Part shown: one piece after another, positions 27,172-57,133 of the stretch | How positions within the stretch are numbered: position 1 is the stretch's first letter | Layout: each line of letters begins with the position of its first letter | Source: Octopus vulgaris | Lineage: Eukaryota | Reading direction: 5' to 3' | Assembly (NCBI GenBank): GCA_951406725.2 | Contig: OX597826.1 | Span: 70,308,001-70,372,000 of the forward strand | DNA length: 64,000 nt | Program-made: the position numbers and the translations under genes | The notes under the pieces: generated by a model | Seen by the model: the letters and a program-made list of their open reading frames with translations, nothing else | Told to the model about the DNA's origin: nothing | Databases searched by the model: none

Positions 27172-30100
27172 TACAAAATATGGGGGTTGAGTTCACAGGT
27201 GTTCTAAACGATTGACGGAATATCTATAACTCTGGAATATCCCAGAAACAGCTGTAAGGCTTTGAATTTTTTTCCAATAATAATAATGTATGTGACTTGA
27301 GATGTTTGTCTTGCCTTTACATTTGTTGTCCTCTTTAACAATATGTATATGTGTGACATTGTCACATATTGAGCACCCAATATACATTGTAAAGTAACTG
27401 GTATTAGAAAGGGCATCCAGCCATACAAACCATGGCACACTGGCTCCTGTCACAGGCGTGCTTACGCGAATACTATGAACATTTTTACCCCCTTACTTTA
27501 CTCTCTCCCCTTACTTAGCGGTCATTCGAATAGCTCTTTGGTCTTAATAATGGTCAATCACATAGTAATTTCCCTTTGTATAACGGTCATTTTCCATAGC
27601 ATTTTTCCGATGGCTGGATAACTGAAGAGATGGCGGCGTGGATTTCCACCTCGGCATCCGAAACTCGGAGTTTTATCATTGCTACCGAATAATTGTCACC
27701 TATTACATTTACAGATATATATATATATATATACATATCAATTCCTATATACAACCAATCTTACCTTATTTCACAGATTTCAGCAGTGGACAAAGATATT
27801 GGCAGAAACAAAGAGCTGTCCTTCAGAATCGTTGCCGGTAACAACCAGAGCCTCTTCACCATCAATAATGTCACAGGACACATCAGAGTCAACAAAATCT
27901 TAAAAGACTATGAAAATCAAGAATTCCGGTTGATAGTTGAAGCAGCAGATAATGGTAAGTGTTACGATAGAGTGGTGGTATTGTGATGTGGGAGATTGTT
28001 ATTGATGTAGTGTATGGTATTGGTATCCAGTGGTGGTCTGCAATAATGTGTTGTAGTGTTGTAGTATGATAATCTGGTTGTATGTGGAGGCACATGGCCT
28101 AGTGGTTAGAGCAGTGGACTCGCGGTCGAGGGATCGTGGGTTCGAATCTCAGACCGGGCGATGTGTGTGTTTATGAGCAAAACGCCTAAGCTCCACACGG
28201 CTCCGACAGAAGGTAATGGCGAACCTCTGCTGACACAACTTTCTCTCACTCTTTCCTCCTGCATCTGGCAGCTCACCTGAGACGGACCGGCATCCCATCC
28301 AGGTGGGGAACCTATATGCCAAGTAAACCGGGAAGCCGGCCCTTATGAGCCAGGTGTTGCTCGAGAAGGAACAAAGAAGGAATCTGGCTGTATGACAGTA
28401 TAGCAACTATAGTAGAATGCCAGTGTAATACTGTGGCTACGTGGTACTGTAGTGTGAAGGTGCATTACCTAGTGCTTAGGTTGTGGTTTCAATTCCCAGA
28501 TCAGGTTGCAGTGTGTTGTGTTCTTGAGGAAAACGCTTCATTCCATATTGCTTTGATCCACTAAGCTGCAAGCAAAACAACAACATCAGCTGAGGCCTAA
28601 CCCTGCAGTGGACAATGAAGTGGCATGTTGGTTATTTGGAAGTATTGTACTGTCGGTCACTTATATGCCATGGGAACCAAAATAATCTCCAGTCTAATTC
28701 GCCTGTTAGCTCATAACAGACCCCAAAACCTATAATTTGTAGTGTTGCAGTATGTAATGTGATTGTGCAGTAATGTAGCCTGATAGTGTGGTAGTGTCAG
28801 TGGTGATGTAATTTCCTGGTAAGCCAAGTGTGCACTATATGATCCATTCCTGGCTGAGTTTAGTAAACATGCATATGAACTCAAGTCCAATACTGACCCC
28901 AGCAATCAGTGCCATCTACTAACAGAACATAAACCACAACCTAAAACTCTTCCCTCAGTCCCCACTCCTAAATCTATCGTCCACTTTTTCTAAAATCAAC
29001 CTCTGACCTCCTGACTAGATTTCATATTTCAGAGCATGCCAGGTGAAATGCTTAGCAGTATTTCGTCTGCCTTTACATTCTGAGTTCAAATTCCGCCAAG
29101 GTCGACTTTGCCTTTCATCCCTTCGGGGTCGATAAATTAAGTAGCAGTTATGCACTGGGGTTGATGCAATCGATTTAATCCCTTTATCTCTTCTTGTTTG
29201 TCCCCTCTATGTTTAGCCTCTTGTGGGCAATAAAGAAATAAGAAACGTTAGCACGCTGGGCGAAATGCTTAGCAGTATTTCATCTGCCGTTACGTTCTGA
29301 GTTCAAATTCCGCCAAGGTCGACTTTGCCTTTCATCCCTTCGGGGGTCGATAAATTAAGTAGCAGTTATGCACTGGGGTTGATGCAATCGATTTAATCCC
29401 TTTATCTCTTATTGTTTGTCCCCTCTATGTTTAGTCCCTTGTGGGCTGTAAAGAAATAAGATTCTTTCCTAAAGATGGTATTTGCATGCATATGTAGAAT
29501 CCACTCCAAAGCAGTGGGCTGGCAGAATCATTAGAGGAATGGACAAAATGTCTTATGACATTTGCCCCAATTCTTCACATTCCCAGTTCAATTTCTGTCA
29601 AAATCAATTTTACTTTCCATCCTACCAAGATTTCTAAAATCAATTGGCCTATAAATACCAAGGTCAATTTAATCAATTGCTAATTTGTGACAACTTGCAA
29701 TGTGTTAGCATAGTACAAGAGAACCCAAACTCTTAACTGTTGTCATGTAATTTTATTTTAGTCATTTTTCTTATTTCTTAATTCCAGGTGAAATTCAGCA
29801 GATTTCACGCTGCAAGGTGCCTATCAAGATCATAACAAAGGCAACTCCATTATTTGAGAAACAATTCTATAACATCACGGTTCCAGAAAACATTGAACTT
29901 CACTCTCCAATTCTCAGTCTACAGGCCGTTAGTCCAAATGGGCAAAAGTTGGTCTATTCCATCACAGGTGGAGATGTCTTCCATGAATTTACAGTAGATT
30001 TCAACACAGGTAAGAGATGTATTTATATTATTATATGATGTTATCTATTCCCAGGTTTGTCTTGAATGAACAAACCTATCATCAAAGACATCCCAGCTGT

Positions 30101-31767: not shown

Positions 31768-34700
31768 TATGTGTCCGTATGTGAGTATATACACATTCAC
31801 ACATATATATATATAAATATATGTGTGTGTGAGTATATATATGTATATATACAAAATTTAAAGGACTGACCACTAAAAGTGGACGGTCAACATGCTAGAT
31901 ATAGACGTCAAATCGCTATTTTCCACAAAGAATATGTTCTCAAATAAAAAAACTCAGCACAAAACCAAAGCATTAAAAATAAGCAAGACGAATGAAAATA
32001 TACGAAATAAAAATGATTACCCATGTACAGATCAGTTTCGATTATTGATATCCGCAAGGATAAACTGTAATCTCGTCAGCATGGTCTGTCATATAGAAAT
32101 ACAATTTGCAGGACTAGATGCAAAAACGTTTGACCGGAGTCTCGCATGCATGGAGTCCAACCGATTATATTTTTGTGTATCTTTCAAATGCCTTCACTTT
32201 GGCGCACTGAGATCGGAAAAAACCACCCTGCAGCTAATAAATAGCAGCAGTCAATTTACCGGTTTGAGAACATATTTATTTAATTTAAAATTCAATAAGG
32301 GTAGAAATTGATATTAATCAATTAAAACCAGTGGCCCAGCATATTAAAAAAAATCCGAAGATTAAAATATTTTTTACATACAAAATCTAAAGGACTGACC
32401 ACTAAAAGTGGACGGTCAACATGCTAGATATAGACGTCAAAACTCTTCCTGATATATTTTCACTTCTTAACCACACATATTCTACTCCCTTTCACAGACA
32501 TGGAAGTTCTAGGCCCGTGTAAGTATTGAAACCGCAACACCTTCTTCTGTCTAGCATGTCGTGTAACCTCGTAACCTCTTCTTTCCATATAGCAGTGTCT
32601 CAGTCGGTTGCCGTCTGTTTTGTTTTTTTGCTTTGTTTTGTTCTTGTTTCTTTTGTGGGTTTTTTTATAGTTGTTGTTGTCGTCGTCATCGTTGTTGTTT
32701 TGTTTATTTATATTTTTATTTTGTAACATTTAGCTTGATTTTATTTTGCTTGGGAATGAAATTATGGTAATTGCCTTTAACATTAGTATATGTGTATGTA
32801 TGTATGTATGTATGGATACATAGGATATATGCATACATGTATGTATGTATATAAATATATGTATATATATAAATATATGTATATAAATATATGTATGTAT
32901 ATAAATATCTCTACGTATGTATTATATATGTGTGTTTATATATATGCATGTATATAAATAAATGTATGTATATAAATATGTATGTGTATGTAGTGTATAT
33001 ACATGTGTGTGTGTATATATATGTGTGTGTGTATATTTACGCACATACGCTCATGTACATGCACACATGCCCAGTCAACTTTATATTATTTTATTATTTA
33101 TTTTTTTAATATATATCTATGTTACCTCTGTATGTTTGATGAATGTGGCATTACATCATATTTGTATCCAAATATTTGCTAAAACAAACCCACCCCACTT
33201 TATTCAAACCTCTATAGCCACCACCTTCTTTTGTTCAAACTTCTGTAGCTACCACCCTATTTACTTCCATCCTGTGTAGTTACTACCCTATGTTATCCAA
33301 ACCTTTGAAGCTACCACCCTATTTTGTCCGAGTCCCTGTCCCTGCACTCAACAGAAGGAAAAACCAGCATTGCCGGTAAAGAATTTCTTCAAATGCAGTC
33401 ACTGTATGCATGACTGCTGCTTCTGTGTGGGCTTCTACAGCTACAGCCATTGCTGCACCACGATCAGTAGCTGAAACAATTTCATCAGGCACATCCATCG
33501 GTCTCTTCAGAGACCGATGGATGCCTACTACCAAACTATGGATCTTTATCTTTTGACCTACAGATATAACTTTATAAACATAAACATTTTTCAAAAACGC
33601 TAAGAGTAAAAGGTGTTTTATATGACACATTCTACAAGTATACGACGTTTGAAAGTGTTTAGTTACAAAAATTATTTTTTAAATCTGTCGGTCAAAAGGT
33701 AAAAGATCCCCAAACTACTGTATTCAGATCCCTGTTGCTACCACTCTATATGACAAAATAGTAATCTTAGTCTATTTGTAGTATCTTATTACGTATTGTC
33801 TCAAGTGAAATGCTAATACACAAATCCAACTTTACATACATTTTTCACGTCCACTAAATATTTCCTGTACTCCCAGTGCATCAAGCAACTTGCCCTGTGT
33901 ACTCATAATAGTCCAGGCATGTTTCTGACAAGCATCAACCAATAAGCCTTCAATATATTTCCTATTTTAAAAGCAATAATTATATCAACATAACTGTTAT
34001 AGAAAGGCATAATTTCCTTTGTTTGTTTTATATTAGAATAATGTAAAAGAACTATATTATATTGTAGTTGTTCTCCTTTGTATTCAGTCCCAGGTCAGCT
34101 CTGATCATGCAGAGGTGTTACAATCGTAACCGATTGGTACTTTTCTTCAGATACATCGTCATCATCATTGTTTAATGCCCACTTTCCATGCTGGCATGGG
34201 TTGGACGGTTTGACTGAGGACTGGTGAGCCAGCTGGCCACACTAGGCTCTGATCTGATCTGGCAGAGTTTCTACAGCTGGATGCCTTTCCTAACGCCATA
34301 TACGATATACCTAAAATCACATAGCCTGATGTATCTACTTTTTCTCTCCTCAGACACTAGTGTAGTATCTGTTTATAGCAAGACATTCAAACTGAATACA
34401 CGTTTTGTGTATTATAACATAATAGCATGAAACTGTGAAAGAGGATCAATATAGTCACATGCAACATATTATATGAGATCCTGGCATTTGTGTTTGTTTT
34501 TTTTTGCATGGCATGTAAATATCATGTAGCTTCGTTTAATGTAGTGTGCTGTGTAATAAGATAATTTGGCTTCATGTGTTTCATTGTAATAACTGCTGAA
34601 TGTAACCAAGCTCCATCATGCCTACATGTTGATTTTGAAATATACTCTGAGTTGACTTTGTCTTTCAGTACCTCTTGGCTCAATAAAATAGATTCTAGGC

Positions 34701-35703: not shown

Positions 35704-38700
35704 TATATACATACATACATACACACATACACACACACATACATACACACATACACACACACATACACACACACATACATATATACATACATACATACAT
35801 ACATACACACATACATACATACATATATACATACATACATACATACACACACATACATACATACATACATATACACATACATACACACACACATACATAT
35901 ATACATACATACACACACACATACACACACACATACACACACACATACATACATACATACATACATACATACATACACACACATACATACATACACGCAT
36001 ACATACATACATTTACACATACATACACACATACATACACGCATACATACATTTACACATACATACACACATACATACACGCATACATACATACATTTAC
36101 ACATACATACACACATACATACACACATACATACACACAAAATGCTTATGCATACACAAATACATACTAAATTATACCTTTTGTCTCTTTTAACTCACTT
36201 CTTTGTTAATCAGTGTTTGCGGCGATCGGTGTTTCACGTCCTACATTTGATTTCAGTTTTTGTCAAGGGCTCTACACCATTTGTTTTATTTTCAACAATT
36301 TTGTGGTCATAATAAAATTGAACAAATGTAAAATAGAATTCAGAAAAGAAACAAAAAAAGGAAAAAAAGTTCGTTGGACGGAGCGGAAGGGATGCTTCTC
36401 TCCCTTGATCGATTGGGAATTACCTCCCTTAGATACATAAATATCAAAAAGTGAACAAATGTGATTAATAATTCCGCAAACCTAACAGGAGACACACATA
36501 CACAAACATACACAAGCGCACATCCACATACGCACACACGTGCATACATACACACGCGCACACATGGATACACACGTACGCACACACACACAAGGGCACA
36601 TCCACATACGCACACACGTGCATACATACACACGCGCACACATGGATACACACGTACGCGCACACACACAAGGGCACATCCACATACGCACACACATGCA
36701 TACATACACACGCGCACACACACACACACGCGCGTTGAATGTGACGAGAGCCAAAAGCACGGTTTTTCATTTTCTTTCGTTGTTGTTGTTGTTGCAGGCG
36801 TTGTGTCAGTGATTGATGTTCTGGACTACGAGAAGATCAACCAGTACAACTTGACCGTCCGAGCTGCTGATGTACTCACTGGTGTATATACGGAAGCTTT
36901 CATTTCTATCAACATAATGGTATGGGTTTTTTTTTTTTTTCCACACTACCCCCCTCTCTCTCTCTCTCTCATCCTCATCCTCTCCTTCTTCATCATCATT
37001 ATCGTCATCATTCTTATCCTCACCACCATCATTTACCATCAGTAACAGCCATCATCTCCGTCATTGTCCTGGTAAAATTTTCTCTACACAAATTGTCTTT
37101 GAGTTTTCTGCTAGCTTTGCCATCATCATCATCATCATCATCATCATCATGCGTCCGCTTTCCATGCTAGCATGGGTTGGACGATTTGACTGAGGACTGG
37201 CGAACCATATGGCTGTTCTGGCAGAGTTTCTACAGTTGGATGCCCTTCCTAACCACCATATGATCAGCTTAACAACTATGTCAATTACAAGTGAAGAGGG
37301 AGCTCTCTGGAGGTCCCTAACCAGCAATAAATAGCAACCTAATCTTCCTTGTATTCTATCCTACCATCTCAAAGAAATGAGGAAACATTGGATAATGTAG
37401 TCCTAGGCACACTATGCCTATTATTGAGCATAGATCTGTTTAGTCAAAGCTGATGTGGTATTAACCACTTAGCATTCAGATTACTGTGAAATGCTTTAAA
37501 TTAATCCTGCATTGTCTCATAGCTTTGAGATTTCAATGATATTATTGTTTCATCATCATCATCGGCATTTAATGTCCGCTTTCCATGCTAGCATGGGTTG
37601 GACGATTTGACCGAAGACAGGTGAACCAGATGGCTGCACCAGGCTCCAATCTGTTCTGGCAGAGTCTCTACAGCTGGATGCCCTTCCTAACGCCAACCAC
37701 TCTGAGAGTGTAGTGGGTGCTTTTACGTGCCACCGGCACGAGGGCCAGTCAGGCAGTAACAGCAACGGCCATGCTCAAATGGTATTTTTTATGTGCCGCC
37801 TGCACAGGAGTCAGTACAGCGGCAACGACCTCGCTTGAATGTTTTGTTCATGCGCCACTGGCACAAGTGTCAGTGAGGCGACGCTGGTAATGATCACACT
37901 CAAATGGTGCTTTTTACGTGCCACCGACACGGAAGCCAGACAGCAGCTCTGGCAATGATCTCGCTCAGATGGAGCAGTTAGCGCACCACTGGCACGAGTG
38001 CCAGTCATCGAATTTGTTGTTTCAAATTCGATTTCACTTGGCTCAACAGGTTTTCGCAAGCAGAGTTTAGTGTCCAATGAAGGAAATGTATACATAAGTG
38101 GGCTTGGCATGGGTGCCAGTCGTCGAATTTGGTTCGATTTCAATTTTCTCAAAGTTTCTCACATGATGTAGTGAGCGGATGGGGGAGAGTATATACCAAT
38201 AACATGTTTTATACCAGTTATAACTCAGGTTAGCCAGCCCTAATTTCATGACCCTTTTTTTCTATTTCATTAGGATGTCAACGACTGTAACCCAGAATTT
38301 GTCAGTGAAGTGTACAGTGTTTCTGTATCAGAAGCCATTCTGATAGGGAGTTCCGTGGTTCAAGTCAAAGCCAAGGACGATGATAGTGGCATCAACAAGA
38401 TGATATTTTATCGCCTTGCTCCAGCCGTTGGTGTAGAAGACGACACAAAATACTTCCAGATCAATCCAGGCTCTGGTATCATTCACACAGTACTCCAGCT
38501 TGACCATGAGATCAAACCTGTCTATAGAGTGTCCGCAGTGGCCACAGACAGTGGCAACCCAGCACGCAGTTCTTCGGTACTGATCAACATCCGTGTACTG
38601 GACCTCAACGACAATGCTCCTACTTTCCCACAGTATTACTACGATGTAACAATCTCTGACCAATCTTCAAGGAACCAGTTCGTGACTAAACTTCACGCCA

Positions 38701-56429: not shown

Positions 56430-57133
56430 CATCATTATTATTATTATTTTCATTATTCGCTAAGTGATCATGTATCTTAAGGTATTATGCATATATATAT
56501 ATATATATATCATATCCCTCATAGATTTATAAATATAAAGTATATATAAAGTAGAAAACTATTTGAATTTTGGTGAATGTGAGGGTGTCAATATGCATGT
56601 ATGTATGTATGTACGTATGTATATATATATATTTATATGTACACATATATAAATATTGTGTATGCATATATTTGATATTTTCTATTTCATATTCAGAAAA
56701 ACTCTTTGGTCGTAAGTGTGAAGCTCCAATTTTGCATGCTTCCTCCTCCTCCTCTTGTGTCATCTTCAGTTTGGACATGTTTAACCTTGACCATGACCTC
56801 AACCATGACCTTTCGTTGCTCACCCTCTATCTATTCTCTATCTCTCTCTCCACCCCCACCACCACATTTACACTTCTAGATTTTGCAGTTTGATTTTTTT
56901 TTTTGTCATTTTTTGCCTATTCAGTACATTTGATTTCACCTTCAACACTAAACTGTTTTATTTGTGTCGAAATGCATTGTGCATCGGTGTTTTGCATTCC
57001 TGCACTATATTGTTGCACCTCTGTGCAAATTCATATATATATATATGTGTGTGTGTTTGTGTTTATTATGTATGTGTATGTGTGTTTGTGTGTGCGCACA
57101 TATTTACTCACATGCATATGCATATATGCATAC

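Follow-up and report, generated by a model that had tools for sequence, protein, structure and literature searches.

An intron of a Fat-like cadherin gene of Octopus vulgaris raises the question of whether two 21-nt microexons can be made mutually exclusive by a stop codon that arises only where the two are joined, as an earlier note on this DNA had proposed. The gene lies in the window, i.e., the whole stretch of 64,000 nt that was analysed, and is a Fat1/2/3-type (Fat-like) protocadherin: 22 exon matches are collinear with O. sinensis Fat1 X1 at 84–100% identity, and the best protein matches are Fat1/3 and Fat-like proteins, with orthology over many cadherin repeats. The collinear matches bear out the attribution to a Fat-like cadherin. 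The features around the first segment, here called mA, and the two flanking exons are the following.

29788..30009, plus strand: exon J of the protocadherin Fat1-like gene, ending in phase 1 (...AACACAG/GTAAGA)
32434..32497, plus strand: acceptor region of mA, with a 62-nt AG-free zone, a TTAAC branch-point-like motif at 32467 and a pyrimidine tract
32498..32518, plus strand: mA, a cassette microexon of 21 nt (CAG/..CGT/GTAAGT)
32554..32558, plus strand: GCATG, 36 nt 3' of mA, weak alone as one of 14 GCATG in the same intron
36798..36919, plus strand: exon K, whose first two bases, GC, complete a Gly codon when mA is skipped or a Cys codon when mA is included

Exon J is 100% identical to the Octopus Fat1 proteins (O. 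vulgaris and O. sinensis) and ends inside the D-E hairpin (DFNT-G) of one cadherin repeat, estimated as about EC21 from the DxND linkers counted in P0304; as a fragment it matches positions 1–49 of Pfam Cadherin under the curated cut-off. Within the J-K intron of 6,788 nt, the two AG/GT-bounded segments of 21 nt have the coordinates and frames that had been claimed for them. The skipped form (FNT-G-VVSV), the mA form and the mB form (16 protein letters each, not shown) are all open on translation, and mA joined to mB gives an in-frame TAA. The second segment, mB, also has a tandem acceptor (CAG/AAG/) that had been missed, and use of the distal acceptor after mA gives TGA, likewise a stop. As for the (T)GCATG reported 32–36 nt past both exon ends, the positions stand (GCATG 36 nt after mA, TGCATG 32 nt after mB), the mA copy reading AGCATG and not TGCATG.

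By a crude splice-site score, with untrained weights, mA ranks third and mB sixth among the 851 AG..GT segments of 3–51 nt in the intron. Open segments of a length divisible by three with both sites at mB level number five on the plus strand of the window, mA and mB included, and one on the minus strand. Judged on its letters alone, the pair stands out somewhat. Splice-site scoring alone was rejected as a discriminator, mA and mB not being separable by it; the top crude score of the intron belongs to a 6-nt AG..GT segment at 34088-34093 that keeps the frame (VPG) and is absent from all the proteins compared.

Transcript contigs and protein isoforms both identify mA as an alternatively spliced microexon. 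Exon J is carried by 20 runs, none on record as RNA, and in the four examined (one contig per run, covering exon J end to end) J-mA-K is joined in three (X1, X2 and X3; studies P1, P2 and P3) and J-K directly, with mA skipped, in one (X6; study P4). These contigs were collected by exon J only, the stretches that include mA and mB together containing tandem arrays, and they are spliced at both ends of exon J, which marks them as transcript-derived; short transcript fragments containing exon J were also sought, and none of 14 candidates passed. Among the 15 Octopus proteins listed, 14 include mA and one skips it. mA is a real cassette microexon, both of whose isoforms exist as spliced transcripts. 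Its inclusion inserts DMEVLGP and replaces the Gly with a Cys, whose codon takes its T from the end of mA and its GC from the start of exon K. The mA region has no second copy in the genome. We take the GCATG downstream of it to be a putative Rbfox-type motif, and inclusion may well be tissue-regulated, possibly neural. Like the neural microexons that depend on eMIC/Srrm234, mA has a length divisible by three, a long AG-free zone, a branch-point-like motif and a pyrimidine tract, but unlike them it lacks an acceptor-proximal UGC, the final 30 nt containing none, so that the code is matched in part, as far as it is laid out in the accessible text of bioRxiv 10.1101/2021.02.24.432780; the main text of this survey, as accessible, does not name kug, fat2 or cadherin.

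The segment mB has a different setting.

33343..33540, plus strand, sense to the gene: 3' end of a 5'-truncated RTE-like LINE, with an ORF end carrying a Cys/His knuckle, a 3' hairpin and a short TAC tail
33355..33375, plus strand: mB, an exon-like segment of 21 nt inside the LINE remnant (CAG/..CCG/GTAAAG)
33407..33412, plus strand: TGCATG 3' of mB, forming part of Cys-Met-His codons that belong to the LINE; found in 22 of 39 other copies

Positions 33343-33531 match at least 39 other genomic places at 74–83% identity (40 of 229 candidates scored), and longer copies reach at least 800 bases further 5' into decayed reverse-transcriptase-like frames. One of three decayed fragments scanned has an RVT_1 match (E 0.011, 15.9 bits, below the cut-off of 29.6), and searching the PDB with the RT-like sequence yielded no informative hit. 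The copy in the window reads 20 residues (not shown) and then a stop, in a frame other than that of the cadherin; the Cys/His ORF end occurs in 19 and a TAC/CTA tail in 27 of the 39 scored copies. By these motifs the host of mB appears to be a 5'-truncated, RTE-like LINE, the label RTE being a provisional one based on motifs. RTE-clade LINEs of octopus encode a reverse transcriptase and a zinc finger and occur in many copies, and the host resembles them in its RT-like frames, Cys/His knuckle and many genomic copies; it differs from RTE-2_OV, whose 3' UTR measures about 600 nt (accessible part of PMC9115989), in that its ORF stop is followed by about 60 nt, and is probably of another family. 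The 3' hairpin of the window copy (33487-33526; near-perfect arms, −30 kcal/mol, z −6.95) is more perfect than in the aligned copies, possibly through arm-to-arm conversion. A 31-bp minisatellite of 4.4 copies (33190-33324) lies directly upstream of the LINE, and its last unit runs into the pyrimidine tract of mB.

Aligned with 36 other copies, mB has the commonest letter at 18 of its 21 places, its AG is present in 11, its GT in 15 and both in two, and its first two places are AA in 35 and AA, AG or GA in all 36. These figures weaken the argument that shared length, phase and TGCATG speak against chance: unrelated LINE copies also have the TGCATG and the initial AA, and a minority of them the AG or GT. 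Two readings of mB were rejected accordingly, namely its TGCATG as a selected Rbfox site, the motif being element-borne, and mB as a duplicate of mA, the sequences and the peptides being unrelated, mA unique and mB LINE-derived.

The claim that mB is a second microexon is not supported. Its inclusion is seen in none of the four runs, a weak test on exon-J contigs, which drop minor forms, and an mB insert in none of 567 proteins, among them 15 of the 27 Octopus cluster members; conservation fares no better, the proteins compared from Argonauta, Sepia and other taxa having no related insert. The acceptor has a UGC at −12; a CTAAY branch motif is absent from 65 nt, the AG-free zone spans just 20 nt, and the pyrimidine tract is supplied by the DNA flanking the LINE; with this tract and both AG and GT, the window copy is better placed for exonisation than most. 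A recent exon of LINE origin that octopus would use in place of mA, with double inclusion removed by NMD through the junction stop, would have in its favour the open frame in mA's length and phase, the rare combination of both splice dinucleotides, the UGC, the fact that both tandem acceptors give a stop after mA, and at least 12 exon matches downstream, so that NMD would apply. Yet neither the four runs nor the 567 proteins contain it, no species examined has two different microexon inserts, the motif and first bases are the LINE's own, and the branch motif and a long AG-free zone are missing; we consider such an exon, and with it the three-state switch that had been proposed, very improbable, J-mA-K and J-K being the forms seen. 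It is unlikely, too, that mB is a functionless cryptic exon spliced at noise level, with the stop removing most of the transcripts in which mA is present too: the splice sites are plausible, and the mA form was assembled in three of four runs, so that stray mB would often fall on mA transcripts and be degraded, but the sites are weak. mB is likely not a used exon, and gives a clear case of transposon-derived sequence mimicking a regulated microexon.

What, then, of the stop? Since all 36 aligned copies begin with AA, AG or GA, any copy of the LINE placed after a T yields one, and random AG-started segments of a length divisible by three do so in 21–29% of cases. The T belongs to the codon of the mA isoform's invariant Cys and the AA are letters of the LINE; the stop is likely a by-product of a Cys-coding T meeting transposon letters and, even with mB used, needs no selection to explain it. 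Mutually exclusive exons separated by NMD are known, joint inclusion producing a premature stop via a frameshift (PMC5740500, accessible part). The mA-mB pair is like them in its premature stop on joint inclusion; however, as described in the same part of PMC5740500, each exon of such a pair is backed by junction reads, and the two specify one and the same structural region. With mA and mB, by contrast, the stop would fall in a codon formed at the junction, no reads support mB and the sequences are unrelated. Among the exon-J contigs of the four runs, a weak test, junctions to the flanking exons are seen for mA and none for mB, and the similarity that tandem duplication leaves between exons is lacking. 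A junction-codon stop would be a variant of NMD exclusion, but the mA-mB pair fails the tests run, and the stop as a mechanism of exclusion finds no support. Mutual exclusion by a junction-only stop most likely falls; what stands is a Cys-adding microexon with two states that apparently extends across protostomes.

Its distribution follows from the 309 proteins, of the 567 fetched, that contain the orthologous site: 200 are without an insert, 99 bear one of 7–8 residues, five have an insert starting with Gly and five end at the site. Cys is the last residue in all 99 inserts of 7–8 residues; these often come from several isoforms of a single species and are mostly annotation products, so that they are not independent. 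The insert is present in molluscs, an annelid, a nemertean, chelicerates, crustaceans and insects, and reads as follows.

Octopus and Argonauta: DMEVLGP-C
Sepia: DMNVLGP-C
Chiton: DMDVLGP-C
Biomphalaria: DMEALGP-C
Owenia: DMNVLDG-C
Tubulanus: DMTKFGP-C
Ixodes: DPAHSNGP-C
Protein clustered with a scorpion: DPVHSIGP-C
Spider: EQRLNAEP-C
Daphnia: AHNSENGP-C
Artemia: AHGTGNTP-C
Damselflies: APDSNNGP-C
Cotesia: APDNNNGP-C
Mosquitoes: APDSTNGP-C

Included and skipped forms are both found in 12 taxa (Octopus sinensis, chiton, Biomphalaria, Owenia, Ixodes, spider, Daphnia, Artemia, damselfly, Cotesia, Aedes and Anopheles). No insert is found in 11 Drosophila proteins, nor among deuterostomes in five hemichordate, one amphioxus and three hagfish proteins or in the jawed-vertebrate Fat1/2/3 proteins. 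It is likewise absent from six Patella proteins, one Lottia and one Argopecten protein, and on the protein sequences compared is patchy or under-annotated in molluscs. The five Gly-starting inserts look like intron read-through or another prediction; Ixodes GES..LLP, a Drosophila insert of 20 residues and that of Anopheles merus were rejected as second microexons, as their start with the donor Gly marks them as read-throughs. The read-through of 20 residues at the insert site of P0299 (Drosophila erecta) suggests that the Drosophila intron is very short here, too short for a microexon. A different insert of six residues without Cys (GSYAGT-S) occurs at the same site in the MetaClust protein P0242.

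The shared site, the first residues D, A and E, which all fit a phase-1 G, and the shared P-C or G-C end lead us to infer that the spiralian 21-nt and arthropod 24-nt exons descend from one protostome exon, lost in Drosophila. Microexons that arose separately at the same old intron in the two groups and converged on a terminal Cys would fit the difference in length (7 versus 8 residues) and the N-terminal parts, which do not align between spiralians and arthropods; but site and phase are identical, the GP-C end occurs in both groups and chelicerate inserts start with D as the spiralian ones do, so that separate origin appears quite improbable. The usual base at the −1 place of a donor is G, from which T departs, and the constancy of the last T in spite of the weaker donor would point to selection for the Cys.

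What this Cys does may be approached from its place in the protein. The calcium motif DxND is missing from the linker before the repeat with the mA site in 269 of 269 proteins, and in cadherin topology the D-E loop faces the preceding linker, which puts the insert at a predicted hinge. In an AlphaFold model of three repeats, made for the included form only (mean pLDDT 91.7, pTM 0.70), the insert is an extended D-E loop and Cys167 opens strand E. Modelled domains 2–3 fit straight cadherin pairs at 2.1–2.7 Å, all three domains differ from straight arrays by about 17–24 Å, and the three-domain model fits Drosophila N-cadherin EC1-4 (3ubh) at 7.4 Å (Z 19.6, 298 aligned), figures that carry inter-domain angles which AlphaFold predicts unreliably at flexible linkers. 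The EC2-EC3 linker of Drosophila N-cadherin is reported to be calcium-free and bent (PMC8325961, accessible part). No second Cys is conserved across lineages within 190 residues in 21 proteins, of which that of Owenia has none at all, and nearby Cys are lineage-specific (insects at −156, −70 and +54; Octopus at −65 and +53). A dimer prediction for the three-repeat fragment scored 0.00, evidence neither way.

Taken together, these results favour, at a probability of roughly three in four, a joint reading in which one optional microexon, mA, adds a seven-residue loop and a Gly-to-Cys change beside the predicted calcium-free hinge, the Cys likely cross-linking or re-shaping the ectodomain, mB being likely unused and the stop likely a by-product. 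The lack of a conserved partner within 190 residues suggests that the Cys, in the oxidising extracellular space, could form an intermolecular disulfide (Fat-Fat or Fat-partner), the splice choice then turning a covalent link on or off. This is the mechanism that we favour, while holding it a little short of even odds; next comes a loop that would alter the bend of the hinge, which we regard as doubtful.

It is quite conceivable, if short of probable, that mA instead forms a hinge or binding-specificity loop without any intermolecular link, its Cys pairing within a folded-back Fat at a distant repeat or being buried. Such a role would suit an insert at the end of a repeat facing a linker without calcium ligands, where the model bends, and the Cys near the site in some lineages (insects and Octopus); for Drosophila N-cadherin and for non-classical cadherins, bending at linkers of this kind has been reported (PMC8325961, accessible part). 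Against it, the nearby Cys are not common to the lineages and the junction Cys is invariant, and one strictly kept Cys in a variable loop would fit a disulfide better than packing. The disulfide mechanism leads to a broader proposal, which we advance only tentatively, that a microexon which predates the divergence of molluscs and arthropods builds a junction Cys and thereby switches a giant Fat cadherin between non-covalent and disulfide-linked states at a calcium-free hinge, i.e., a splice-controlled covalent adhesion. It would have been missed because both model systems, Drosophila and vertebrates, are without the exon.

Ectodomain mini-exons that insert a few residues by regulated splicing, and are thought to change binding, occur in the LAR-RPTP (meA/meB), neurexins and teneurins, and mA is like them in adding a few residues to an extracellular domain; no ectodomain mini-exon with a key Cys built across a splice junction is known to us. 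Within the Fat family, mouse has the alternative exon 5.1 of Fat3 and exons 24.1 and 24.2 of Fat1/Fat3, short, frame-keeping and developmentally regulated (PMC5082931, accessible part). They resemble mA as short frame-keeping alternatives in a Fat1/2/3-type cadherin, 5.1 being in the ectodomain too; by the same account, however, 5.1 adjoins the 11th repeat and 24.x are cytoplasmic, whereas the mA site lies at about EC21 and has no insert in the deuterostome proteins compared. A junction-made Cys goes unmentioned for the mouse exons in the accessible text of PMC5082931. Literature searches, supplementary exon tables of microexon surveys aside, found no paper on the mA exon, and the accessible text of an Anopheles cadherin paper (PMC2447487) does not mention it; mA is already in public annotations as unnamed isoforms, with no description found in the literature.

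The gene makes further splice choices. A second optional microexon of 15 nt in phase 0 (56697-56711, plus strand) encodes KNSLV near the last cadherin repeats; it is skipped in two of eight Octopus isoforms compared, has a GTAAGT donor and a TGCATG about 22 nt downstream, and has an optional counterpart of six residues, KINLLV, in Biomphalaria. Outside the window, at about residue 4450–4510, an optional basic insert of seven residues lies in the cytoplasmic part (VNRDKRK in Octopus, VKRGKKK in chiton, WRSKRKA in Biomphalaria and AKRWRRK in Patella; P0424, P0433, P0449 and P0462), which from these protein sequences would be another conserved splice choice of molluscs.

The Fat family steers cell migration and neural wiring. 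At the mA site, a single residue that only splicing produces has persisted in molluscs, annelids, nemerteans and arthropods even though it weakens the donor. The Fat-like ectodomain has been studied mostly in fly and mouse, both without the insert in the proteins seen, and an isoform switch that most protostomes have, among them mosquitoes, may have escaped study.
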